From IMG/VR virus record IMGVR_UViG_3300023178_000038: 64,000 bases of DNA; one strand, written 5' to 3'. Shown here in pieces: positions 15,017 to 63,958 of the stretch (position 1 is its first letter; each line of letters begins with the position of its first letter). The position numbers were made by a program, and so were the translations under genes. The notes beneath the pieces were generated by a model. The model saw nothing but the letters and a program-made list of their open reading frames with translations, searched no databases and was not told the DNA's origin. The stretch is from an uncultured virus (IMG/VR IMGVR_UViG_3300023178_000038). Its lineage: Duplodnaviria > Heunggongvirae > Uroviricota > Caudoviricetes.

Positions 15017-16757
15017 CTCCTAGTAATAACGATCGTATATCTGGTGCAGGTCCTTGTGGCACTGGTGCTTGTCCGCCACCTAATGCTTGCTCTAATAATG
15101 CAGCTTCATTTTCTGGTACCTCTGGTTCTTCTGCTGTGTAAAACTTGTCAAGTATAGATTGCATAGAGTTTGGATTTTTATATATCTGTACAAGCGCCAT
15201 AGTTGCTTTAGGATCGCCTTGACTTGCTTGCACTTTAAGTGTCTCAAACAATGTACGTTCTGCTTCGTCTTTTAATATTCTATCGTTAATCTTTTGTACG
15301 TTATCTAGTCCGTCCATGTTTTCTTGCAAAGTCTCTTTGTCTATAATACCTGCTTGTAATAATTGTAATCCAGAGACAATCTTTGTTGGTTCATCAAAAC
15401 CTGCCATTACACCATACACACGTCTAGTCTTGTACATACCTGATATGTCTGCGCTAGGTGTATATTGTTCTGCAAACGCTGTGCCTTTTAGAAATCCTGC
15501 TAATGGTTTTTTACTATTGCCATTAAGTGCTTCGTCCATCTCTAAACGTTTATAATCAATTTCTTCTATTGCTGTTTTTAATGCTAACTGATATTCTTTT
15601 ACGTTTAGATCAACAGACGATAGTAACTCTTGCAATCCCCTACCTGTTACAAACGAGTTAGGAGATATAGCGTCATCACTGACTGGATAACTAGAACCAA
15701 CACGTAATTGTCGTTCTATTCTGTCTATTTGTGTAAATAACTGATACGGAACATTGTTAGGTGGTTTAGCAACTTGTGAACCAGGTGTTAAGTAATTGAC
15801 TGCAAATCTACCACGTTTGTAGTTCCCGCTCTCTAATTCACCAACGATATTCGTTTCTGTAAATACACTATCTTCCATAGCAATTATGGATAAGACGTTA
15901 ATCTTTGCCATAGCTGCCATCAAACCTAATACATGGTCATATTGACCTGTTAGTCTGTCAAAACTAAATCTCTTTGATATAACAAAGCGAGGTCCTGACT
16001 TTAATGGATTTGGTGTAAAATCTAATATTTGTTTTGTATCTGGTAAAAATACGTATGTACCATCTTCGTCATAGTATTCTACTAATTCTGTACCATCAGC
16101 TAAATGGTTATCCCAACTTCTTTGGAAACCATCATGGTATTTAAACTTACTATATCCAGAAGGAAACTGACTGCTTTCATCTATAGCAACGTTTGCTTGT
16201 GGATACATTTGTTTTATAACTGCATTAGGAACAAGTCGTATTAATGCAAGTTCTTTTGGATCTTGGTCAGGTCCATAATATCCTGGATAACAGTCATACG
16301 GATCTCGTAGTTCTGCATGAGGATACATTACGCCATCTGGTGACATCTTCTGTCTTATAATCCATACACAGAAACCATAACCAGGTAGCCATCTTGCTGC
16401 CTGTGGTAACTGCATATCCATCTTAGAGTAACTGTCTAAGTTAGTTACAATACGCTCTAATTTTTCTGCTTTGTTTTTAGCACGTTCACTGTCTGCATAC
16501 TGATCAACTTTGATGTCGGGCATACGTCCTAATTTTTGTGCTAAGTGTTCTAATCCTGAATTTATAAGATTAGGTACAGGTAAATCTATATCATAGTTTT
16601 TTGCGCTCTCACCTAACAATGCTGCTATACCATTGCTTCCACCGTTCATAATAGAACGAACTCTATCACGATACTCATAGTGTCCACTATGTTCGTGCAT
16701 GCCTTTTAAGTCGTCTGTTTTAATTAATAATTCGTCAGGTGTTAAAACCATTACCAA
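15000..16757 (-). CDS. Portal protein, copy A
   Basis: 585 aa immediately after terminase; near-identical homologue 59906-61660. Confidence 0.8.
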   Translation of the reverse strand: MVMVLTPDELLIKTDDLKGMHEHSGHYEYRDRVRSIMNGGSNGIAALLGESAKNYDIDLPVPNLINSGLEHLAQKLGRMPDIKVDQYADSERAKNKAEKLERIVTNLDSYSKMDMQLPQAARWLPGYGFCVWIIRQKMSPDGVMYPHAELRDPYDCYPGYYGPDQDPKELALIRLVPNAVIKQMYPQANVAIDESSQFPSGYSKFKYHDGFQRSWDNHLADGTELVEYYDEDGTYVFLPDTKQILDFTPNPLKSGPRFVISKRFSFDRLTGQYDHVLGLMAAMAKINVLSIIAMEDSVFTETNIVGELESGNYKRGRFAVNYLTPGSQVAKPPNNVPYQLFTQIDRIERQLRVGSSYPVSDDAISPNSFVTGRGLQELLSSVDLNVKEYQLALKTAIEEIDYKRLEMDEALNGNSKKPLAGFLKGTAFAEQYTPSADISGMYKTRRVYGVMAGFDEPTKIVSGLQLLQAGIIDKETLQENMDGLDNVQKINDRILKDEAERTLFETLKVQASQGDPKATMALVQIYKNPNSMQSILDKFYTAEEPEVPENEAALLEQALGGGQAPVPQGPAPDIRSLLLGGVQGG

Positions 16758-18667
16758 AAAACCTCGTTGTATTCACTCTGCTTATAATAGTTATAAGAAG
16801 GAGTATAGTCGCTCTCTGCTTCAGCTAACATCATTTTTACGTTTGTGCGTATACGTTTCATTGGAAACCAACTTGCCATAACTAAGTCAGTTTTTGTTTT
16901 AACATTACGTGAATTACTTGCACCTGCTTGTGAAAAATATATAAGCTGTTGTCTAAAAATATTTACTTTACGTTTTGTTGCAGCGTCTCCCCATGCTAAA
17001 TTTATCTTTTGGTTTTCATACATACCTACCATACTGGTAACACCGAATGTAGGATCCCATTTGTTTTTATAGGTTTGATGTCCTTCTATTCTGACACCGT
17101 GACTTGCTGCCCAGTTACGTATATCTCTGTCTTGTCCTATAGCACGTTGAAAACCGTTTTCTTCTACTATCCAATGTGATAACCAATACTTGTCATACCA
17201 CTCTTTCATTAATGCGTGTGCTTTTTGTATACCACCGCCTTGATCGTTTTTTATATCTACAAGCCATACTTGTTGTGTTTTTACATTATACGCCCATAAC
17301 ACTGCTGCCTGGTATCCCGTACTTGCGGGATCTAATCCTGCAATAAGTGTTGTATGTGGTGGTATGTCACCTAACTTACGTGATGGATCTAAACAACTAT
17401 CTACTGCTTCTGCTGTAAACAAACTCATACCGTCTGGTATAGCTTTGTTAAGATAGACCATTTCAAATATATTTCTACCACCTGTTGTCTCTGCTGCAGC
17501 TAATTGTTCTAATAACCATTTATGAGAACGCTTGCCTGACCATAACATGTGTTCTGTATGGTCTATAGTTTCATCTTCTAGTGGTACTTCTAAATCATGC
17601 GCACGGTCTACAATACTTTCCCATGCTTTGTTTTCTAAGAGGTGATGGTATAAATCGTCTGGGTGCTGTCTTGATCCAATGACGACCATTCCTGTATGTT
17701 CCTCTTTTCTTGACTGTAGCGTTGTGGTCCACCAGTTCCTGGTGTTTTCTCTAGCACTTGGTTGCACAGTGCTTCCATGATCTTCGATGTCGTCTGCAAT
17801 AATAAGGTCTGCGTCTCTGGAAAGGATTTTACCTCCTTTTCCAATTGCGACAAGAGTTGGCGACTTAATACCAGAGACTGTTCTAGTTGCAACAGTAAAT
17901 TGACTGGACGACCAACTTTTTCCTGAACGATTAGCAGGTCTAAATCCGTCCCAGTCTCCGTAATCTTGGATAAGTCCTTCATTATTCTCCAAATGGTCTA
18001 ATACCGCACCAACACTGTTCTTTGCAATATCCTCGTTACCACCGCACCACATGATACGAATGTTAGGATTTTTACATATCATGTATACGCAAAAGTGTGT
18101 TAACAAGTCTGTTTTACCATGTCTAGGTGGTGACAGTATCATTAACCTGTTCCCATGTTTTATACTATCTAAGATAGCACCAATCCACTTCTTTTGAAAG
18201 TCAGGTGTTTCATAATTCTTACCTTGTTCTGTTAAAAAGTAATCATCTCTAAATTTTACAAAGTCGTCTACGTCCGCTTCCTGGATTTCCCCCACAACCG
18301 CTTTTGTACGTTTTTCGTACTCTGCTTCTTTTGCCATATCTTCTACATACGCTGCCATAGCCCTACTAACAGTTGCTTGGCTACAGTTCAGTATGTCGGC
18401 AATTTCTTTTTTAGTTTTGCTACCTGATAAAATGTCGTTAAAAAAATTTTTTTTCTTCATAATGGCGTAGTAGTCTCCCCTACGCTTCTGTATGTTTGGA
18501 TCTACGTCTTTTACAACCTGTATATCTTTTGCACTCTTCTTTGCCCTATATGCCCTCTTCTTTACTCTGTTAGCGCACTTGTCGCTACAGTATTTTTGCC
18601 TACCTTCTGGTAAAGGGGACACACAATCAGAAGCTGTACAAAGTGTGTTTTTTTCTTTATTTGACAT
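16751..18667 (-). CDS. terL: Terminase large subunit with N-terminal Zn-ribbon and HTH, copy A
   Basis: Walker A SPPRHGKT, Walker B LIIADD, nuclease GLDPA; start MSNKE chosen by alignment with copy B. Confidence 0.92.
   Translation of the reverse strand: MSNKEKNTLCTASDCVSPLPEGRQKYCSDKCANRVKKRAYRAKKSAKDIQVVKDVDPNIQKRRGDYYAIMKKKNFFNDILSGSKTKKEIADILNCSQATVSRAMAAYVEDMAKEAEYEKRTKAVVGEIQEADVDDFVKFRDDYFLTEQGKNYETPDFQKKWIGAILDSIKHGNRLMILSPPRHGKTDLLTHFCVYMICKNPNIRIMWCGGNEDIAKNSVGAVLDHLENNEGLIQDYGDWDGFRPANRSGKSWSSSQFTVATRTVSGIKSPTLVAIGKGGKILSRDADLIIADDIEDHGSTVQPSARENTRNWWTTTLQSRKEEHTGMVVIGSRQHPDDLYHHLLENKAWESIVDRAHDLEVPLEDETIDHTEHMLWSGKRSHKWLLEQLAAAETTGGRNIFEMVYLNKAIPDGMSLFTAEAVDSCLDPSRKLGDIPPHTTLIAGLDPASTGYQAAVLWAYNVKTQQVWLVDIKNDQGGGIQKAHALMKEWYDKYWLSHWIVEENGFQRAIGQDRDIRNWAASHGVRIEGHQTYKNKWDPTFGVTSMVGMYENQKINLAWGDAATKRKVNIFRQQLIYFSQAGASNSRNVKTKTDLVMASWFPMKRIRTNVKMMLAEAESDYTPSYNYYKQSEYNEVFW
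17635..17982 (-). CDS. Candidate overprinted gene nested in terL (alternative frame, 115 aa)
   Basis: Same start, stop and length at 62538-62885; GGAG-AATA-ATG RBS; locally suppressed synonymous change. Confidence 0.45.
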   Translation of the reverse strand: MKDLSKITETGTDLDLLIVQEKVGRPVNLLLQLEQSLVLSRQLLSQLEKEVKSFPETQTLLLQTTSKIMEALCNQVLEKTPGTGGPQRYSQEKRNIQEWSSLDQDSTQTIYTITS

Positions 18668-18689
18668 ATCTATATGGTATAGTGTAGCA

Positions 18690-18910
18690 TACAGGAACAA
18701 GCATTGTGGTATTCCTGCCTATACAAGTACCACAAGTTCAGGATCTCGTTTAGAAGGTTGGATTAGCAGGACCGCCTTAGTCGTGGGTTGAGCCACATTC
18801 CTCACATTTTATTTATTAGAGAGAGAGCAAAAACGTTACTACACTTAATAAACTGGTTTGGGTTGGGAGTGACACAGGGTTAGCTACACCTACAACGACT
18901 ACTCGACTGT
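18690..18910 (+). ncRNA. Conserved structured RNA with covarying hairpin and probable pseudoknot
   Basis: Stem 18704-13/18726-35 with compensatory and wobble changes vs 63598-607/63620-29; loop CCTGC complementary to GCAGG 18766-70; upstream TGnTATAGT. Confidence 0.65.
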
Positions 18911-18934
18911 AAGATTACAGATATTAGTGCGACT

Positions 18935-18982
18935 GCACTATATCTTGTAATATACCACATATAGTACCACTATATATAGTAT
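18935..18982. promoter_or_regulatory. Three NrdR-box-like palindromes overlapping a TATACT -10 (18980-85)
   Basis: GCACTATATCTTGTAA, ATACCACATATAGTAC, CCACTATATATAGTAT vs consensus acaCwAtATaTwGtgt; outer boxes 32 bp apart. Confidence 0.6.
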
Positions 18983-18991
18983 ACTGTCTAC

Positions 18992-19072
18992 GGGGGTGTT
19001 TTAGATCGCAGTTAGATGTTTGTTCCAACCTTAACTAACTCAACGCAGGTGCAAATCCTGCCACCTCCACAA
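18992..19072 (+). ncRNA. Minimal tmRNA-like / tRNA(Ala)-like RNA without mRNA-like domain, copy A
   Basis: GGGGGTG/CACCTCC acceptor stem with G3-U70 and A73; T-arm GCAGG-TGCAAAT-CCTGC; helix AGTTAG/CTAACT; no D-stem; -10 box 6 nt upstream. Confidence 0.8.
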
Positions 19073-19301
19073 ATTACCACATAAACATTGACGTATTCAT
19101 ATACATTTCCGCACGGCTTCGGTTAAGGTATGGGGGTTATATATATGCGTGTGTTATGCGTGTGCGGTTGTATGTTGTGCTATGCGCGTGTTCGTCTACG
19201 TTGTGCGCGCGTCTGTGTTGTTATGCGTTCGCAAGTCTAACCGCATACTATTTTTTAAAAAACTAACGGGGATCCATACAAAACGAAATACGATTTTACA
19301 T

Positions 19302-19329
19302 AAAGAAAAAGCGGGCTACTTGTCCCGCT
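19302..19329 (-). terminator. Intrinsic terminator ending the early-gene block
   Basis: AGCGGG/CCCGCT stem then TTTTCTTT on - strand. Confidence 0.8.
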
Positions 19330-19353
19330 CTCTCTCTGTTGTTGTGTTACTGG

Positions 19354-19545
19354 TTAGCCGTAGTGTTCTTGATAATAATTTAATTCTATTGCTTGATTAT
19401 CAATAATACTCTCTAACTCTAATTTGGTTCGCTCTAGTGTTTTTTCTAATTCTCTAATGCGTTTTTTTAATGCGTAACTATCCGCCATTAGTCCCGATAG
19501 ATACCACGCAAAAGCAATTAAAAACAATAATATAATTACATTCAT
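19354..19545 (-). CDS. Small membrane-anchored coiled-coil protein
   Basis: N-terminal hydrophobic helix; TAATG coupling. Confidence 0.6.
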   Translation of the reverse strand: MNVIILLFLIAFAWYLSGLMADSYALKKRIRELEKTLERTKLELESIIDNQAIELNYYQEHYG

Positions 19546-32887: not shown

Positions 32888-33643
32888 TTACATAGTCGGA
32901 TAATCTTTATAAAATTTAGGTTGTTTTTTATAACCTGTTATAAAGTTTTCATTAATTACAAAGTTCTGTTTTTCTAAATAATTTTCTTCATATTCTTTTT
33001 TAGTACCTTTGCGAACCTTTAATTTGATATCTTCTTTTTTAAATACATGTACATAAACTAATGGTGTACCTGCTTCTATAGTGCAATTATAATTTTCAAT
33101 AGAAAATGGAAATGCAACATATCCCCACTTATCTGCTTCTACTACACCAGTAAGCATTCTTATATCATTTCTAAAATGGTAAAATGGATCTTGATACATA
33201 ACACTATAACCATCAGGTACTAATATTTTGTAAGGCATACCTAATTTTAATATAGTTCCTTGTGGTGTCATACCTATAGGCATATCACCTACTTGATGTT
33301 CTACATGTGCGCCTAATAATTTTTCTTTATGGTAAGTATCAGAAGTAAATGCTGCATAAGTATGATCTTTGCCATCTACTTTTTCTGTTCCTATATACAT
33401 TTTTCCCCATAAAGGTAATACAATACCTTCACCAAAATAATCTTGTATAGCGGGACATGTTTTAGCTGTAATAAATTTATCACCTGAAGGAATGTTTAAA
33501 TGAGCGTCTTTCCAACTATCTCTGTAACTACCAGGTTTTAATTGTTTCCACCAATCAGGTAATATATCTTTAGCTTTTACTGGCGGATATAACTTTAATA
33601 GATCTTCAAACTCTTTACTCTTTGGTATAATCGTAACTTTCAC
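32888..33643 (-). CDS. Conserved phage protein (DUF6065/dUTPase-fold-like)
   Basis: PDWWK...TAKTCPAI...PDGYS...GVVEAD...IEAGTPL. Confidence 0.55.
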   Translation of the reverse strand: MKVTIIPKSKEFEDLLKLYPPVKAKDILPDWWKQLKPGSYRDSWKDAHLNIPSGDKFITAKTCPAIQDYFGEGIVLPLWGKMYIGTEKVDGKDHTYAAFTSDTYHKEKLLGAHVEHQVGDMPIGMTPQGTILKLGMPYKILVPDGYSVMYQDPFYHFRNDIRMLTGVVEADKWGYVAFPFSIENYNCTIEAGTPLVYVHVFKKEDIKLKVRKGTKKEYEENYLEKQNFVINENFITGYKKQPKFYKDYPTM

Positions 33644-34331
33644 TTTTACTGTAACCTCCTTTAAACCTACTCAATGTTACTAAATCTATTTTTTTAACAA
33701 ACCTTCTAATTTTTTCGTCCATGTATTTAAAAGTATATTTATATTTTTCTTTTCTATAAGGAACTAAATAACATATAGGTTCCCCTTTTCTAATTAACAA
33801 TTCTTCTTTATCAGTCGTCACTAATATTTGTACATTTAATTGTGTCATTTTATCTTGTTCTATTACACCATAAGTAGCAAACCAATCACTGTTAAAATGT
33901 AAATTTAAAGGTATATATCTTAGTGCATATCCTTTAGGTAATATACAATGAAATCTAGTCGCTAATCTAAATACAGCTTTAATTGGTTTTCCTGGTATAT
34001 GATTTACAAACTGATCATCTTCGTGATGATTTAAACCAACTTTAGGATTAGATGTTCTACCTTGCCATTTACCATTCATATTAAATAAATGTATGTCACA
34101 AGGTGCAACAGCTACGTATGTATCTTCGTGAAATATATTTGCAAAAGAAGGACACATTTTAGTAGTTCTCCAGTTAGGAACTAATTTACTTTTAAACCAT
34201 GTATGATTTTGCGGCATATCTACTGGCATATCTTTATACCACTTTGGAATAAAATTTTTAGTAGGTTGCGGATTAATTTCTTTTGTATCTATAAATTCAT
34301 CAAAATCTGAAGTAAATATAATTTCAGGCAT
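33615..34331 (-). CDS. Paralogue of 32888-33643
   Basis: PKWYK...TTKMCPSF...PKGY...GVIEQD...IRKGEPI. Confidence 0.55.
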   Translation of the reverse strand: MPEIIFTSDFDEFIDTKEINPQPTKNFIPKWYKDMPVDMPQNHTWFKSKLVPNWRTTKMCPSFANIFHEDTYVAVAPCDIHLFNMNGKWQGRTSNPKVGLNHHEDDQFVNHIPGKPIKAVFRLATRFHCILPKGYALRYIPLNLHFNSDWFATYGVIEQDKMTQLNVQILVTTDKEELLIRKGEPICYLVPYRKEKYKYTFKYMDEKIRRFVKKIDLVTLSRFKGGYSKSESYDYTKE

Positions 34332-34614: not shown

Positions 34615-35706
34615 ATGAAGAAACTTACTGTACTTGGTAACGGCATTGCTAGTATGCTTGCTATTAATTATTTTAAATTACACACTGATTGGGAAATAGA
34701 TTGTTTAATAAACCCAAACGCAAAACACTGGGACGTAGGTATAAGTTCTGCTTTAGATACACCGTTTCAATTAGATAACATAAATTATTTGGATATAGAA
34801 AAGTTTTATGCCAACATAAAATTAGGAATTATGAAAGAAAATTTTAATAATAAAGATTATTTTCAATCATACAAATTAAGTAATGCTAGTTTGCAATTTA
34901 ATAGTAAAGATTTTATTAATTATCTTATGTCAATAAATAAAATAAAATATATTGAAACAGACAACTTTAACAATATATCGTCAGATTATATATTTGATGG
35001 TAGTGGTATACCTAATATAGATGAAAGCTATAATCTTATTAAAAACATTCCAGTCAATACAGCATTAGGAATTAAAATACCTCACGAATATCCACCATTT
35101 ATGTACACAAAAATAAAAGCAATGAAACATGGTTATATTTCAATAATACCAAGTAAAAGATATTTGTTTGTTACACACATGTTTAATTCTAATTTAAATA
35201 CACAAGATGAGATACTAGAAGAATTAGAAAAACAATTTGCTTTTAAAGATTATCAAGTATTACCTTTTAAAAATTATTACAAAAAGTTTCCTTTTAATAA
35301 AAACAAAGTTTACATAGGAAATAAAAATTTTTTTGTTGAACCTTTTGAAGGAACAAGTTTAACTGGTATTAATATAACAATAAATTCTGCTTATCATTTA
35401 TGGAATAATCCAAGAACTTTTGATCCACAGGCGTTAAGAGATTATATTGATGAAGCAATAGATACTATTCTTATGCACTATTTAGCTAATAAAAATATAG
35501 ACACAAAGTTTTGGAATACAGCTAATAGTTTAGCTTTAGAACATTTTACAAATAATGTATCAGAAAATTTTAAAAACAGAGTATTAAATATATATGATCC
35601 AAGAGTTAAATATAATTACTCACATTTTTACGATCAAAAAATGTTAAAAGAAAATTTAGATTATTTAAGTGTAGGAGATTTATTCTACAACTTGTTCAGG
35701 AACTGA
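34615..35706 (+). CDS. Tryptophan-halogenase-like flavin-dependent protein (degenerate motifs)
   Basis: VLGNGIAS, IFDGSG, T...AM..GY.S.IP, IGN..FFVEP.EGTS; only long + strand gene; very AT-rich. Confidence 0.7.
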   Translation: MKKLTVLGNGIASMLAINYFKLHTDWEIDCLINPNAKHWDVGISSALDTPFQLDNINYLDIEKFYANIKLGIMKENFNNKDYFQSYKLSNASLQFNSKDFINYLMSINKIKYIETDNFNNISSDYIFDGSGIPNIDESYNLIKNIPVNTALGIKIPHEYPPFMYTKIKAMKHGYISIIPSKRYLFVTHMFNSNLNTQDEILEELEKQFAFKDYQVLPFKNYYKKFPFNKNKVYIGNKNFFVEPFEGTSLTGINITINSAYHLWNNPRTFDPQALRDYIDEAIDTILMHYLANKNIDTKFWNTANSLALEHFTNNVSENFKNRVLNIYDPRVKYNYSHFYDQKMLKENLDYLSVGDLFYNLFRN

Positions 35707-41722: not shown

Positions 41723-42769
41723 TTAACCTACTACGTTGTCGATTGCACAGTGATATTGTTGTGGTCCGAAATCGAAAGCCATTTCCATGTATACTGCTTT
41801 TGCAATTCTTGCTTGATCGTTTTGATCTAAGTCTCTTACAAACATAGTTCCATAACCTGGAATGTTAAGGAATACTGGTTTGACAAAACTAAGGTCAACG
41901 ATAAATGCTTGCTTAGAACCAGATATAGTTCCTGCAGGCAAGTAGTCAGATAATGCCATTCCGAGTGAACCGAATGGTGTGACGATTGTATCAATGTCAA
42001 CACCTCCGACATTTCTGTCTCTTGGTATAATACCATAATTAACGTCTCCAACTGAAGCACTAATTAATTCTTTGTTAAGATCCAACAACATTGTTGGAGA
42101 AACAAAAAGCACTGGTTGTCTCATTGGTGCGCCTGCGTCATACAACGCTTTCATAGCGTCAGCTATGATTGACCAGTTTAATTTTTGTGCTGCAGCAGGA
42201 TCTCCTCCGTCATCATTGTTGACAGAGTTTCCGCCTGATAAGTCTTGGTGTTCTTTAAGACCTCTCATCTGACGATTACCTGTAGTACCGTCATTGTAAG
42301 AAGCGTTAAATGCTGACCATTCGACTTTCTTTGCTACTTGCTCTAATACTAATTCCATCTGATAAGCTAACTCATCAGTAATTGGATTGTTACCTGCTAA
42401 TGCTAATGCAGGATCGGAGTTCTTATAGTTCCCTGATAATTGAAACGGTACAATTTCTCCAGAAGCTGCTTGTGCAGTATAAGATACTTGCGCTGCTTCA
42501 TGGAAAATTTGTAGTGTACCCTGTTGTGAACTTCTGCTTCTTCCAGAATAGTTAGGTGAACCACCTTCATCATCTGGAGTAACAGCAGTCACTACGGCGT
42601 TATCTTGTGTTTGGAACTGGAAGAATGTTGAGTTGATCGCAACTCCTCCGTTAAGTCCGCCTGCAGCAGCTAGCAATGGTGTTCTATGAGGTGTGATTTT
42701 AAATAATTCACCAGTAAAGTTATTAACGTCACTAGCAACTATTGGATTAGCACCTGATATTGCTGCCAT
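41723..42769 (-). CDS. Major capsid protein, copy B
   Basis: Same length and near-identical to 62-1108. Confidence 0.85.
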   Translation of the reverse strand: MAAISGANPIVASDVNNFTGELFKITPHRTPLLAAAGGLNGGVAINSTFFQFQTQDNAVVTAVTPDDEGGSPNYSGRSRSSQQGTLQIFHEAAQVSYTAQAASGEIVPFQLSGNYKNSDPALALAGNNPITDELAYQMELVLEQVAKKVEWSAFNASYNDGTTGNRQMRGLKEHQDLSGGNSVNNDDGGDPAAAQKLNWSIIADAMKALYDAGAPMRQPVLFVSPTMLLDLNKELISASVGDVNYGIIPRDRNVGGVDIDTIVTPFGSLGMALSDYLPAGTISGSKQAFIVDLSFVKPVFLNIPGYGTMFVRDLDQNDQARIAKAVYMEMAFDFGPQQYHCAIDNVVG

Positions 42770-59922: not shown

Positions 59923-61660
59923 CTCCTAAGAGTAATGATCTTATATCTGGTGCAGGACCTTGTGGTACTGGTTGTCCACCGCCCATCATTTGATCGAGTA
60001 ACGCAGCTTCACCTTCTGGTACTTCTGGTTCTTCTGCTGTATAAAATTTATCTAGTATTGATTGCATAGAGTTAGGATTTTTATAAATCTGTACTAACGC
60101 CATTGTTGCTTTAGGATCACCTTGACTTGCTTGTACCTTTAATGTTTCAAACAAAGTACGTTCTGCTTCGTCTTTTAATATTCTGTCGTTAATCTTTTGT
60201 ACATTATCAAGTCCGTCCATGTTTTCTTGTAATGTCTCTTTGTCAATTATTCCTGCTTGCAATAACTGTAAACCAGAGACAATCTTTGTTGGCTCATCAA
60301 ATCCTGCCATAACTCCATACACACGTCTAGTCTTGTACATACCTTGTATGTCTGTGCTAGGTGTATATTGTTCTGCATACGCTGTGCCTTTAAGATAACC
60401 TGCTAATGGTTTTTTCTTGTTACCATTTAATACTTCGTCCATCTCTAAACGTTTATAATCTAGTTCTTCTATTGCTGTTTTAAGTGCTAACTGATATTCT
60501 TTTACGTTTAGATCAACGGACGATAGTAACTCTTGTAATCCCCTACCTGTAACAAATGAGTTAGGAGATATAGCGTCATCACTAACTGGATAGCTTGATC
60601 CAACACGAAGTTGTCGTTCTATCCTGTCTATCTGTTGAAACAACTGATATGGAACATTGTTTGGTGGTTTAGCGACTTGTGAACCTGGTGTTAAATAGTT
60701 GACTGCAAATCTACCGCGTTTGTAGTTCCCACTCTCTAATTCACCAATAATATTCGTTTCTGTGAATACGCTGTCTTCCATAGCAATTATGGACAAGACG
60801 TTAATCTTTGCCATAGCTGCCATCAAACCTAGTACATGGTCATACTGACCAGATAATCTATCAAAACTAAATCTTTTAGATATAACAAAACGTGGACCTG
60901 ATTTAAGAGGATTAGGTGTAAAGTCTAGTATTTGTTTTTGTTCTGGTAAAAATACGTATGTACCATCTTCATCATAAAACTCTACAAGTTCTGTACCGTC
61001 AGCTAAATGATTATCCCAACTTCTTTGAAATCCGTCATGGTATTTAAACTTACTATAACCTGATGGGAACTGACTTGACTCATCAACCATAACTTGTGCT
61101 TGTGGGTACATCTGTTTAATAACAGCGTTAGGTACAAGTCTTATAAGTGCTAATTCTTTTGGATCTTGATCTGGTCCGTAATATCCTGGATAACAATCAT
61201 AAGGATCACGTAGTTCTGCGTGTGGGTACATAATGCCATCTGGTGACATCTTTTGTCTTATGATCCATACACAAAAACCATAACCAGGCAACCATCTAGC
61301 TGCTTGTGGTAACTGCATATCCATTTTAGAATTGCTATCTAAGTTAGTAACTATACGTTCTAACTTCTCTGCTTTGTTTTTAGCACGTTCGCTATCTGCG
61401 TAAGCGTCTACCTTTATGTCTGGCATACGTCCTAATTTTTGTGCTAAGTGTTCTAAACCTGAATTTATAAGATTAGGTATTGGTAAATCAATGTCGTAAT
61501 TCTTTGCGCTCTCACCTAACAGTGCAGCAATACCATTGCTACCACCGTTCATAATGGATCTGACTCTATCACGATATTCATAGTGTCCACTATGTTCGTG
61601 CATTCCTTTTAGGTCGTCAGTCTTAATTAATAATTCGTCTGGGGTATACACCATTACCAA
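59906..61660 (-). CDS. Portal protein, copy B
   Basis: Near-identical to 15000-16757. Confidence 0.8.
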   Translation of the reverse strand: MVMVYTPDELLIKTDDLKGMHEHSGHYEYRDRVRSIMNGGSNGIAALLGESAKNYDIDLPIPNLINSGLEHLAQKLGRMPDIKVDAYADSERAKNKAEKLERIVTNLDSNSKMDMQLPQAARWLPGYGFCVWIIRQKMSPDGIMYPHAELRDPYDCYPGYYGPDQDPKELALIRLVPNAVIKQMYPQAQVMVDESSQFPSGYSKFKYHDGFQRSWDNHLADGTELVEFYDEDGTYVFLPEQKQILDFTPNPLKSGPRFVISKRFSFDRLSGQYDHVLGLMAAMAKINVLSIIAMEDSVFTETNIIGELESGNYKRGRFAVNYLTPGSQVAKPPNNVPYQLFQQIDRIERQLRVGSSYPVSDDAISPNSFVTGRGLQELLSSVDLNVKEYQLALKTAIEELDYKRLEMDEVLNGNKKKPLAGYLKGTAYAEQYTPSTDIQGMYKTRRVYGVMAGFDEPTKIVSGLQLLQAGIIDKETLQENMDGLDNVQKINDRILKDEAERTLFETLKVQASQGDPKATMALVQIYKNPNSMQSILDKFYTAEEPEVPEGEAALLDQMMGGGQPVPQGPAPDIRSLLLGGVQGA

Positions 61661-63561
61661 AAAACCTCGTTGTATTCACTTTGCTTATAATAGCTATATG
61701 AAGGAGTATAGTCGCTTTCTGCTTCAGCTAACATCATTTTTACATTGGTACGTATACGTTTCATTGGAAACCAACTTGCCATAACTAAGTCAGTTTTAGT
61801 TTTTACATTACGTGAATTACTTGCACCTGCTTGTGAAAAGTAAATTAACTGTTGTCTAAATATATTGACAAGTCTTTGTGTCTTAGAATCTGCATACGGT
61901 ATGTTTATCTTTTCTTGTTCATACATACCTACCATACTGGTTACACCAAATGTAGGATCCCATTTATTTTTATAAGTCTGGTGTCCTTCTATACGTACAC
62001 CATGATTAGCAGCCCATAACTTTATATCTCTATCTTGACCAATAGCACGTTGAAATCCATTTTCTTCTATGATCCAGTGACTTAACCAATACTTGTCATA
62101 CCATTCCTTCATTAAGTTATGTGCTTTTTGTATACCACCACCTTGATCGTTCTTCATATCTACAAGCCATACTTGTTGTGTTTTTACGTTATATGCCCAA
62201 AGAACTGCTGCCTGATAACCTGTACTAGCAGGATCGAGTCCTGCAATAAGACTTGTGCCTGGTGGTATGTCTCCTAGCTTCCTTGATTTATCTAAACACT
62301 TATCAATCATCTCTGCTGTAAATAACTCCATACCTTGTGGTATAGCTTTGTTTAGATAGACCATCTCAAATATATTTCTACCACCTGTAGTCTCTGCTGC
62401 AGCTAACTGTTCCATTAACCATTTATGTGTACGTTTATTTGACCATAACATGTGTTTTGTATGATCTATAGATTCGTCTTCTAGCGGTACTTCTAAATCA
62501 TGCGCACGATCAACAATAGTTTCCCATGCTTTGTTTTCTAAGAGATGATGGTAAAGATCGTCTGGGTGTTGTCTTGATCCAATAACGACCATTCCTGTAT
62601 GTTCCTCTTTTCTTGACTGTAATGTTGTGGTCCACCAGTTCCTGGTGTTTTCTCTAGCACTTGGCTGCACAGTACTTCCATGATCTTCGATATCGTCTGC
62701 GATAATAAGGTCTGCGTCTCTGGAAAGGATCTTACCTCCTTTTCCAATTGCGACAAGAGTTGGCGACTTAATACCAGAGACTGTTCTAGTTGCAACAGTA
62801 AATTGACTGGACGACCAACTCTTTCCACCTCTATTAGAAGGTCTAAATCCGTCCCAGTCTCCGTAATCTTGTATGAGTCCTTCATTATTCTCCAAATGAT
62901 CTAGTACCGCACCTACGGAGTTACGTGCAATGTCTTCGTTACCACCGCACCACATGATACGTATGTTAGGATTTTTACAAATCATGTATACGCAAAAGTG
63001 TGTAAGTAGATCTGTCTTACCATGTCTAGGCGGAGACAAGATCATTAACCGCTTACCGTGCTTTATACTATCTAAGATAGCACCAATCCACTTCTTTTGA
63101 AAGTCTGGTGTCTCATAATTTTTACCTTGTTCTGTTAAGAAATATTGATCACGAAACTCAACAAAAGAGTTTACGTCAGCTTGCAACTCGAAGGGGTCCC
63201 CACGCTTTTCGAGCTTTGCTTCTTTTTCTACATCTTCGAGATATGCTGCTACTGCACGTGACACTGTTGATGGACTGCAGCTTAATATGTTTGCTACTTC
63301 CTTCTTTGTCTTCTTACCTTCTAAAATGTCGTTAAAAAAATTTTTTTTCTTCATAATGGCGTAGTAATCTCCTCTACGCTTCTGTACATTCTCATCTACA
63401 GTCTTTTCTACCTGGATCTCTTTAGTAGGTTTGTTTGCACGCCACGCTCTCTGCCGTGTTCTTTTAGAACACCTCTCACTACAATACTTTTTACGACCTT
63501 CTGGTAAGGGGACTAAACAGTTGTCTGCTACGCAGATGGTGATTTTTTCATTATTTGACAT
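61654..63561 (-). CDS. terL: Terminase large subunit with N-terminal Zn-ribbon and HTH, copy B
   Basis: SPPRHGKT, LIIADD, GLDPA. Confidence 0.92.
   Translation of the reverse strand: MSNNEKITICVADNCLVPLPEGRKKYCSERCSKRTRQRAWRANKPTKEIQVEKTVDENVQKRRGDYYAIMKKKNFFNDILEGKKTKKEVANILSCSPSTVSRAVAAYLEDVEKEAKLEKRGDPFELQADVNSFVEFRDQYFLTEQGKNYETPDFQKKWIGAILDSIKHGKRLMILSPPRHGKTDLLTHFCVYMICKNPNIRIMWCGGNEDIARNSVGAVLDHLENNEGLIQDYGDWDGFRPSNRGGKSWSSSQFTVATRTVSGIKSPTLVAIGKGGKILSRDADLIIADDIEDHGSTVQPSARENTRNWWTTTLQSRKEEHTGMVVIGSRQHPDDLYHHLLENKAWETIVDRAHDLEVPLEDESIDHTKHMLWSNKRTHKWLMEQLAAAETTGGRNIFEMVYLNKAIPQGMELFTAEMIDKCLDKSRKLGDIPPGTSLIAGLDPASTGYQAAVLWAYNVKTQQVWLVDMKNDQGGGIQKAHNLMKEWYDKYWLSHWIIEENGFQRAIGQDRDIKLWAANHGVRIEGHQTYKNKWDPTFGVTSMVGMYEQEKINIPYADSKTQRLVNIFRQQLIYFSQAGASNSRNVKTKTDLVMASWFPMKRIRTNVKMMLAEAESDYTPSYSYYKQSEYNEVFW
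62538..62885 (-). CDS. Candidate overprinted gene nested in terL, copy B
   Basis: Conserved 115 aa frame with GGAG RBS. Confidence 0.45.
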   Translation of the reverse strand: MKDSYKITETGTDLDLLIEVERVGRPVNLLLQLEQSLVLSRQLLSQLEKEVRSFPETQTLLSQTISKIMEVLCSQVLEKTPGTGGPQHYSQEKRNIQEWSLLDQDNTQTIFTIIS

Positions 63562-63583: not shown

Positions 63584-63805
63584 TATCAGGATAAGCATTG
63601 TGGTGTTCCTGCCTACACAAACACCACAAGATAAGGATTCGTTAATAGGGTTGGCATAGCAGGACCGCCTTAGTCGTGGGTTGAGCCACATTCCTCACAT
63701 TTTATTTATTAGAGAGAGAGCGCATTTACTGTTACTACACTTAATAAACTGGTTTGGGTTGGGAGTGACACAGGGATCGAACCACCTACTACTAGAACTC
63801 GACAT
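63584..63805 (+). ncRNA. Conserved structured RNA, copy B
   Basis: Aligns with 18690-18910; covarying stem. Confidence 0.65.
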
Positions 63806-63812
63806 ATAAAGA

Positions 63813-63871
63813 GTACAATATATAGTACCACTACATATAGTACCTTTAGACTACACTATATATAGTATACT
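63813..63871. promoter_or_regulatory. Three NrdR-box-like palindromes and TATACT -10 (63866-71)
   Basis: GTACAATATATAGTAC, CCACTACATATAGTAC, ACACTATATATAGTAT. Confidence 0.6.
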
Positions 63872-63878
63872 GTAGACT

Positions 63879-63958
63879 GGGGGTGATCTGGACAGGGTTA
63901 AATGCTTATCCAAATACTCATCTAACCAACGTGGGTTCGACTCCCACCACCTCCACAA
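63879..63958 (+). ncRNA. Minimal tmRNA-like / tRNA(Ala)-like RNA without mRNA-like domain, copy B
   Basis: GGGGGTG/CACCTCC-A; T-arm GTGGG-TTCGACT-CCCAC; helix GGTTA/TAACC then AAC linker. Confidence 0.85.

Follow-up and report, generated by a model that had tools for sequence, protein, structure and literature searches.

The strand opposite terL in this uncultured phage sequence raises two questions: whether the approximately 220 nt adjoining the terL start encode a structured RNA, as proposed in a preliminary description made from the letters alone, and in which process such an RNA would participate. The window (the whole stretch of DNA that was analysed, 64,000 nt) consists of two related, distinct phage genomes of ~42–44 kb in tandem, an arrangement that is either genuine or the product of a chimeric or concatemeric assembly. 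Nearly all genes are on the minus strand; endolysin and portal genes are annotated along with those in Table 1, no integrase was found among the ORFs scanned, and a separate small terminase gene was not recognised in this clade. A non-coding region of ~650 nt, ~78% identical between the two genome copies, separates terL from the end of the early operon and carries three plus-strand modules: the flagged RNA, a tmRNA tRNA-like domain (TLD) and a third RNA (RNA-3).

Table 1. Coordinates of the features discussed in the text, with strand and basis of assignment
Feature	Position	Strand	Basis or remark
Flagged RNA, copy A: conserved core	18691-18883	+	Alignments A3/A5 with pair counts, strand test
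Flagged RNA, copy B (second genome)	63585-63779	+	Pairwise alignment; 15-mer core at 63761-63775
Putative RNA promoter, sigma-70-like	18661-18690	+	Consensus scan, 10/12
H1 (10 bp, 12-nt loop)	18704-18713 with 18726-18735	+	Two-sided changes in 8/10 pairs; 100% of cells paired
H1-loop pentamer CCUGC (half of the kissing pair)	18714-18718	+	Pairs with 18766-18770
H1b (one bulge; loop AUUAGCAGGA contains GCAGG, 18766-18770)	18755-18761 with 18772-18777	+	3/6 pairs covary in the close clade
H2 (GUGG-GUUGAG-CCAC)	18783-18786 with 18793-18796	+	3/4 pairs covary in the close clade
AGAGAGAGAGC insert, clade-specific	18818-18828	+	Missing from the distant clade
3' domain	18835-18879	+	GUUACU (18835-18840) can pair with AGUGAC (18868-18873)
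Invariant 15-mer GGGAGUGACACAGGG	18865-18879	+	84/84 sequences, although part of the search pattern
Variable tail, then AT-rich stretch with ACTATATATAGTA-type repeats	18884-18991	+	Alignments
Weak terminator-like hairpin	18925-18940	+	Terminator-like site scan
TLD-only (CDS-less) mini-tmRNA, a neighbour and not part of the RNA	18992-19069; copy B 63879-63955	+	Rfam and alignment
RNA-3, GU-rich	19133-19260	+	Starts at invariant GGGGGUU, ends with terminator-like hairpin and U-run
terL	16751-18667; 61654-63561	-	
SU10-type major capsid protein	62-1108; 41723-42769		

Extent and spread of the RNA family

Pairwise alignment of the two copies shows long identical blocks separated by linkers with indels. 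The extent first proposed for copy A, 18690-18910, holds for the plus-strand core up to 18883, whereas positions 18884-18910 are variable; copy B, originally placed at 63584-63805, is represented by a core at about 63585-63779. An exact 31-mer from the region matched 25 IMG/VR contigs, two more patterns brought the total to 51, and a terL-based search added 11; a gapped pattern regained the same 62 close contigs and no others. These 62 loci and the two window copies gave 44 distinct sequences, of which one, cut by a contig end, was dropped, leaving 43 in the alignment of close relatives (A3). By a scan for TGGG-N1-2-GGGAGTGACACAGGG, the invariant core GGGAGUGACACAGGG was located in at least 120 IMG/VR contigs; among the 80 loci compared, 57 (52 distinct) are of a new type with a 1-nt spacer. 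Once rows with N or short upstream sequence had been removed, the broad alignment (A5) comprised 84 distinct sequences, 36 from the close clade and 48 from a distant clade whose terL is 50-56% identical to that of the close one. With an nhmmer profile of A3, the 3' domain was also detected at two loci from a clade of phages with ~50% identical terL.

When the whole window was compared with Rfam 15 (4227 models), nothing was found for the RNA at the gathering score; at E ≤10 over 18500-19400, the sole match within it was a chance snoRNA (18 bits, E 0.66). The RNA region of 15 close, 7 sister and 20 distant loci was likewise without an Rfam match, bearing out the initial failure to assign a family, and the core sequence was not found in the papers searched. 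Two scans of 185,579 species genomes (0 and 2 matches) yielded no true copy, the two MAG matches being due to chance in GC-rich contexts. Among 50,697 GenBank phage records, there was neither the RNA nor a close terL, and no close cultured phage was identified; the best terL matches, from Streptomyces and other phages, are 25-28% identical. Taken together, the comparisons identify the flagged stretch as a strongly conserved, folded RNA of ~190 nt, a member of a previously undescribed family. This is a new, phage-only class of RNA that is spread through uncultured marine and salt-marsh phages (habitat labels as recorded for the contigs).

Fold, strand and 3' domain

The MFE of the RNA is no better than that of shuffled sequences (z = +1.22 on the plus strand, -0.58 on the minus strand), and the case for a fold was therefore built on comparative evidence. 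Seven helices with 42 pairs were delineated in A3 (43 distinct sequences), where 98.7% of 1805 cells are paired, compared to 91.1% in column shuffles (0/500 reach the observed value) and 39-51% when the partners were slid by 1-3 columns. Fourteen pairs are changed on both sides, all of them in H1, H1b and H2 (8, 3 and 3 pairs, respectively; Table 1). H1 reads TTGTGGTATT/AGTACCACAA in copy A and TTGTGGTGTT/AACACCACAA in copy B and, as had been noticed at the outset, differs at two pairs, where A-U is replaced by G-C and U.G by U-A. The core of H1b covaries between the clades (GUGG/CCAU vs GCCG/CGGU). H2, the GTGG/CCAC hairpin of the preliminary description, lies where it was expected and covaries, with a GG/CC to CC/GG swap in 19/43 sequences as well as a G-C to G.U to A-U series; in the distant clade, covariation takes the form of UAGC/GCUA vs UAGG/CCUA. 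Because MAFFT places H1 and H2 one column out of register between the clades, these two helices were judged per clade.

Another early prediction was a pseudoknot formed by CCTGC in the H1 loop and a downstream GCAGG, which is located in the H1b loop. Both pentamers are invariant in the close clade but vary in the wider family. In A5, the loop-loop helix is paired in 83/83 sequences with letters at these positions, and 3/5 pairs show two-sided changes, namely, C-G to G-C (4), C-G to U-A (10, plus 2 with U.G) and U-A to A-U (14, plus 1 with U.G), with the combinations CCUGC/GCAGG, CUAGC/GCUAG, CCAGC/GCUGG and GUAGC/GCUAC all represented. RNAalifold, applied to 30 of the 48 distant sequences (a large-insertion subgroup and near-duplicates were left out), regained the loop-loop helix and the covarying H2 and also yielded an invariant 3' hairpin, GUUCAUUCU/GGAGUGA-C-AC. 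The covariation thus confirms the predicted pseudoknot: H1 and H1b appear to be locked together by a 5-6 bp loop-loop (kissing) helix, pairing within a molecule and between molecules fitting the covariation alike. Further compensatory change in homologues, which the preliminary description had sought as a check, was accordingly found in four helices (H1, H1b, H2 and the loop-loop helix). H3, H4 and H4b show no covariation and are conjectural; the invariance of H3, H4 and the 3' hairpin in this sample is partly due to the search pattern, which fixed them.

In the covarying helices H1, H1b and H2, there are 98 G.U cells and 0 A.C cells, and 98.8% of the cells are paired when read on the plus strand vs 87.4% on the minus strand. 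The occurrence of G.U without A.C indicates that the RNA is read on the plus strand, the orientation proposed from the two copies. The linker between AGAGAGAG and GTTACT is 7, 8, 10, 12 or 16 nt long in the relatives, lengths that fit no frame, and hence the stretch is not coding, again as first suggested. A 31-codon frame through the core is broken by the H2 covariation and indels, and a downstream Cys-rich ORF is interrupted in several clades; both were rejected.

Within the 3' domain, the possible GUUACU/AGUGAC helix displays one-sided U.G to C-G changes only. No further copy of the 15-mer, with up to 3 mismatches, is present in the window besides the RNA copies. The AGAGAGAGAGC insert is matched 5 times in the window (0.37 expected) and nowhere outside the non-coding region; two inverted copies, 18818-18828 (+) and 19326-19337 (-), flank the TLD and RNA-3 and might form a long-range helix, serve as a protein site or mark where a cassette was inserted.

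The AT-rich stretch beyond the variable tail ends with a promoter-like TAGTATACTGT immediately before the TLD. A hairpin with a U-run within 140 nt after the core was detected in 8/36 close and 10/50 distant distinct flanks (18/86), so that about 80% of the members have no terminator after the RNA. Three to four spaced (C)CACTATATATAGTAC(C) repeats occur at 18910-18985 and 63800-63875, and also downstream of the RNA in all clades, the last one directly preceding the TLD; they may be phage promoters or iterons.

Promoter, genomic context and possible functions

The putative promoter contains a -35 TTGACA (18661-18666), perfect in this clade, and a -10 element, for which there are two candidates: TATAGT (18678-18683), of the extended type with TGG at 18675-18677, and TAGCAT (18685-18690). 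The promoter and the start codon of terL (ATG, 18667-18665, minus strand) overlap. The RNA, on the plus strand, is divergent from terL, on the minus strand, as originally described. The sequence TATAGTGTA.CAT is invariant in 43/43 close relatives, and in every clade TATAGT is found 8-12 nt upstream of a conserved ACAAGCA start, often preceded by TGn. Contigs from four RNA libraries of four studies, which are strandless, have a depth of 2-5 and might derive from DNA carry-over or the minus strand, span 18691-18860 (168 nt), 18706-18829, 18835-18975, 18869-19108, 18889-19052 and 19197-19356, and one more lies inside terL. The first of these starts at the predicted RNA start, a slight hint in favour of that position, and three (18835-18975, 18869-19108 and 18889-19052) run from the RNA's 3' part as far as the TLD or into it.

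The surroundings of the RNA vary among the clades. In two complete genomes of the distant clade (G009 and G011), it resides in the divergent control region, with small genes and terL on its left and with ~450 nt of promoter-like repeats followed by a ~7-kb block of small plus-strand genes on its right, whereas in the clade of the window the downstream cargo consists of the TLD and RNA-3. Loci of the distant clade (L287, L289, L295, L298 and others) also have a long hairpin, AUGGGGUUU...AAACCCCAU, which precedes the RNA core region by about 100-170 nt and encloses a stem-loop with a Shine-Dalgarno-like loop CGAAAGGAGGAAACU (anti-SD-like on the other strand). In a sister clade (L241-L261, alignment A4; terL ~74% identical), the space between terL and the TLD is occupied by another RNA, multi-branched and 300 nt long, in which 11 pairs covary among 10 sequences and which has no nhmmer similarity to the flagged RNA and no Rfam match. 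Two paralogous proteins of ~250 aa (32888-33643 and 33615-34331, minus strand; phrog_7084, weak DUF6065) are common to the clade of the window and the distant clade and absent from the sister clade. The AlphaFold model of a 251-aa paralogue (pLDDT 81.6) weakly resembles dUTPase/dCTP deaminase in Foldseek (E 4e-4, TM 0.3-0.64); with no RNA-related fold and no link to the flagged RNA, these proteins were rejected as the partner that their co-occurrence would suggest.

By analogy with the HK022 put RNAs and Bacillus EAR, which are cis-acting processive antitermination RNAs, we propose, with a probability of roughly one in three, that the flagged RNA is a promoter-proximal, cis-acting leader of an early rightward transcript. 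Host RNA polymerase would produce this transcript early in infection, and the RNA, as its leader, would act in cis on the transcription complex or on the transcript, through processive antitermination or as a stabiliser. As a result, the downstream cargo would be expressed, that is, the mini-tmRNA and RNA-3 here and the ~7-kb block of small genes in the distant relatives. The resemblance to put and EAR lies in a non-coding, folded RNA at a promoter-proximal or operon-internal place, in which stems covary and unpaired bases are conserved, and which has variable downstream cargo and lacks its own terminator. The differences are that there is no sequence or model similarity and that, put being two simple stem-loops, the RNA described here is ~190 nt long and includes a loop-loop pseudoknot. 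The place just after the promoter (8-12 nt) with no conserved terminator, which would be expected of an antiterminator, is found in this family.

The leader function is consistent with the promoter-proximal location in every clade, the paucity of terminators in the distinct flanks, the exchange of cargo while the RNA stays beside the promoter, and the three RNA-library contigs that link its 3' part to the TLD, although such strandless contigs of low depth could equally stem from DNA carry-over or minus-strand transcripts. The fixed place by an early promoter, together with 15 bases unchanged between phages with 50-56% identical terL, points to contact with a conserved host machine. Conversely, the RNA matches no known antiterminator RNA in sequence or model, its MFE stability does not exceed that of shuffles, and the sister clade manages with an unrelated structured RNA. 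Additional promoter-like motifs lie between the RNA and the cargo, and a TGGTATACTGT-type site belongs to the TLD itself, so that downstream expression need not depend on a leader; furthermore, read-through in the window would run antisense into the early genes, with no obvious benefit. If RNA-mediated antitermination is correct, this family would bring the number of natural RNA antiterminator classes to only three. A riboswitch was considered and rejected given that a terminator-like site is present in only 18/86 flanks, that the next plus-strand gene is at least ~450 nt away in the distant clade and that no protein gene follows here.

Nearly as likely as the leader is a trans-acting immediate-early sRNA processed from the primary transcript, in which the kissing loops would be a scaffold, and a host protein or RNA of a conserved kind would be bound by the single-stranded UCACAU and GGGAGUGACACAGGG and thereby sequestered or retargeted. 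The data on fold and conservation fit both possibilities equally; the invariance of unpaired nucleotides across phages with such divergent terL, the strong host-type promoter and the 168-nt RNA-library contig that matches the core almost exactly are all compatible with an sRNA, and the swap for another structured RNA in the sister clade resembles the exchange of accessory host-directed modules. What weighs against action in trans is that the 3' end is not defined by a conserved terminator, that a search of the phage's own sequence, allowing up to 3 mismatches, gave no complementary target, and that the genes exclusive to the RNA-bearing clades gave no RNA-related fold. Should it be borne out, an RNA-only early takeover factor would be at hand, enabling host takeover or anti-defence without translation.

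That the RNA regulates terL and the late operon, by antisense pairing or transcriptional interference, is unlikely, notwithstanding the local arrangement. The terL ATG is at 18667 and the RNA start at ~18691, that is, terL starts 24 bp from the RNA start, which implies that the late promoter is inside or beyond the RNA gene and that the terL leader is complementary to the RNA. The early operon ends with a minus-strand hairpin and T-run near 19330, a minus-strand promoter-like site is present at 18990-18961, and terL lacks a Shine-Dalgarno sequence, whereas most genes have one. In the distant clade, however, the late genes start to the left of the RNA promoter and do not overlap the RNA, which precludes antisense pairing as the conserved function of the family; moreover, cis-antisense pairs need no invariant sequence, and, gaps in cover being uninformative, it is a minor point that no RNA-library contig crosses 18656-18690 and so joins terL and the RNA. 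Separately, the N-terminal extension of terL has a weak zinc-finger (zf-CGNR) match at residues 31-55.

We would consider similarly improbable, if attractive, an RNA-only immediate-early programme, in which an RNA made by host polymerase at genome entry would fold by kissing loops, possibly into oligomers, and, untranslated, directly reprogram a conserved host machine (RNA polymerase or the ribosome) and, along with a CDS-less tmRNA blocking trans-translation, would constitute a protein-free host-takeover operon.

Quite unlikely, too, is a function as an origin-primer or R-loop RNA, comparable to ColE1 RNA II or the T7 primary origin, or as a packaging RNA forming a pRNA-like ring. ColE1 RNA II and the T7 primary origin combine a promoter, a folded RNA with G-rich blocks and no terminator with a subsequent AT-rich region, and the layout of the flagged RNA is the same: G-clusters (GG, GGG, GGG, GGG) directly precede AT-rich repeats in all clades, a conserved terminator is absent, and the RNA is located between divergent operons, adjoining terL. 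There is, however, no skew signal here, with no turning point in GC skew at 2-kb resolution. The pRNA of phi29 is a phage RNA that is expressed from an early promoter and forms an intermolecular ring via two complementary loops; the flagged RNA shares the early promoter, two loops with covarying complementarity, which might join within or between molecules, and, in this clade, proximity to packaging genes. It differs in the lack of an Rfam match, in the unrelated phages, with no phi29-like features in the searches run, and in its distance of 0.8-1.4 kb from terL in the distant relatives; homology to phi29-type pRNA was rejected on the strength of the Rfam result and of the closest GenBank terL sequences (25-28%, Streptomyces and other phages). 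Another comparison is with GOLLD and ROOL, orphan, strongly structured, phage-carried RNAs of 580-800 nt that are often found beside tRNA-like genes; the flagged RNA is far smaller and matches neither model. GOLLD and ROOL are presented in PMC12286853 as ornate large phage-associated RNAs.

Relation to the TLD and RNA-3

In the preliminary description, the RNA was also considered as a separately transcribed partner of the adjacent tmRNA-like domain. The neighbour proves to be a genuine tmRNA tRNA-like domain. Copy A matches the Rfam tRNA model (22 bits, E 0.07), relatives with a TLD of the copy-B type match the tmRNA model at 44.8 bits (E 1e-14), just below the gathering score of 47, and the sister-clade TLD scores 36 bits (E 3e-11). 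In the alignment of the B-type TLD with the tmRNA model, both ends are aligned, and ~300 internal positions are reduced to 34 nt. The TLD has a G3.U70 acceptor stem, the D-loop GAUCUGG, a covarying T-arm and a P2-like stem, with no tag reading frame; ARAGORN does not call it.

That the flagged RNA would supply the missing mRNA-like or pseudoknot domain of this mini-tmRNA is highly improbable. The idea has some appeal because the two adjoin in this clade, the RNA contains a pseudoknot, its 3' part is loosely similar to the TLD 5' half, and the UAGUC before H2 is reminiscent of the stretch that precedes the resume codon in E. coli tmRNA. The similarity to the TLD falls short of significance, with 41/500 shuffles scoring equally, and the tmRNA model has no match in the RNA region. 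The suggested resume context, GGT TTG GGT TGG GAG TGA, is preceded by a U-run that varies by 1-3 nt in the relatives, so the resume frame is not kept; no tmRNA-type reading frame is conserved across the relatives of the RNA, where a tag frame with a conserved resume codon and stop is absent, and linker and U-run indels break every frame. The distant clade has the RNA without a tRNA or tmRNA in 56/56 loci (Rfam, run on 20 of them, detected no TLD), and the sister clade has the TLD without the RNA, which shows that the modules are distributed independently; in addition, no covarying helix between the RNA, the TLD and RNA-3 was found in a MAFFT alignment that is poor downstream. The partnership claim is thereby largely refuted: the RNA is an autonomous module rather than part of the mini-tmRNA. 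This finding corrects a tempting misreading of the locus as a split tmRNA and gives a defined genomic context to a rare phage tmRNA of the TLD-only kind that ARAGORN overlooks.

The least probable of all readings is that the RNA has no function, the stretch being a DNA-level element (a pac/cos site or inverted repeats bound by protein) or conserved by chance. This reading draws on the proximity to terL and the lack of a thermodynamic signal and is contradicted by G.T wobble on one strand only (98 vs 0), compensatory changes in four helices including the long-range loop-loop one, a promoter directly upstream, and pieces in 4 RNA libraries from 4 studies.

CDS-less, TLD-only tmRNA is known from mycobacteriophage DS6A, the database categories 'Standard, no CDS' and 'Permuted, no CDS' contain 9 and 72 entries, respectively, and a TLD-only molecule is reported to inhibit tmRNA, perhaps via SmpB titration (PMC4131195, PMC11915505). 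The DS6A molecule is the closest relative of the neighbour at 18992-19069, not of the flagged RNA, and going by these two sources and as far as they show, the neighbour seems to be the second kind of phage TLD-only tmRNA after DS6A.

Several TLD variants deserve mention. In one IMG/VR relative (L028), a ~45-nt deletion takes the 3' T-stem and 3' acceptor strand of the TLD and the next spacer (cf. window 19050-19100). The sister TLDs differ at the alanine identity pair (L243 and L245 vs L249, L256 and L260), with two forms, GGGGAUG/CAUCCCC (G3-C70) and GGGGAUG/CAUCUCC (G3.U70); given the G3-C70 pair, some of these copies may be non-chargeable.

In 22 of 42 distinct variants of RNA-3, a frame from the conserved CG[UC]UC[GA] runs exactly 10 codons to a stop and ends with LAA, ALL, LFF or LSS (e.g., ...PTEALAA, ...NRLLAA), and one variant keeps the stop as TGA; in the other variants, the 10-codon frame is lost or shifted. 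This frame may be a tag template or a by-product of the terminator U-run. A split or permuted tmRNA was rejected: the tmRNA_permuted model matches weakly on T-arm...GGGGGU (19.7-25.5 bits vs the gathering score of 47), and one relative with GCGGGUU would break the alternative acceptor stem.

Finally, the only sizeable plus-strand gene of the window, at 34615-35706, is tryptophan-halogenase-like (Pfam 2e-16, PHROG 2e-46) and sits where the two genomes join, in a stretch of low GC.
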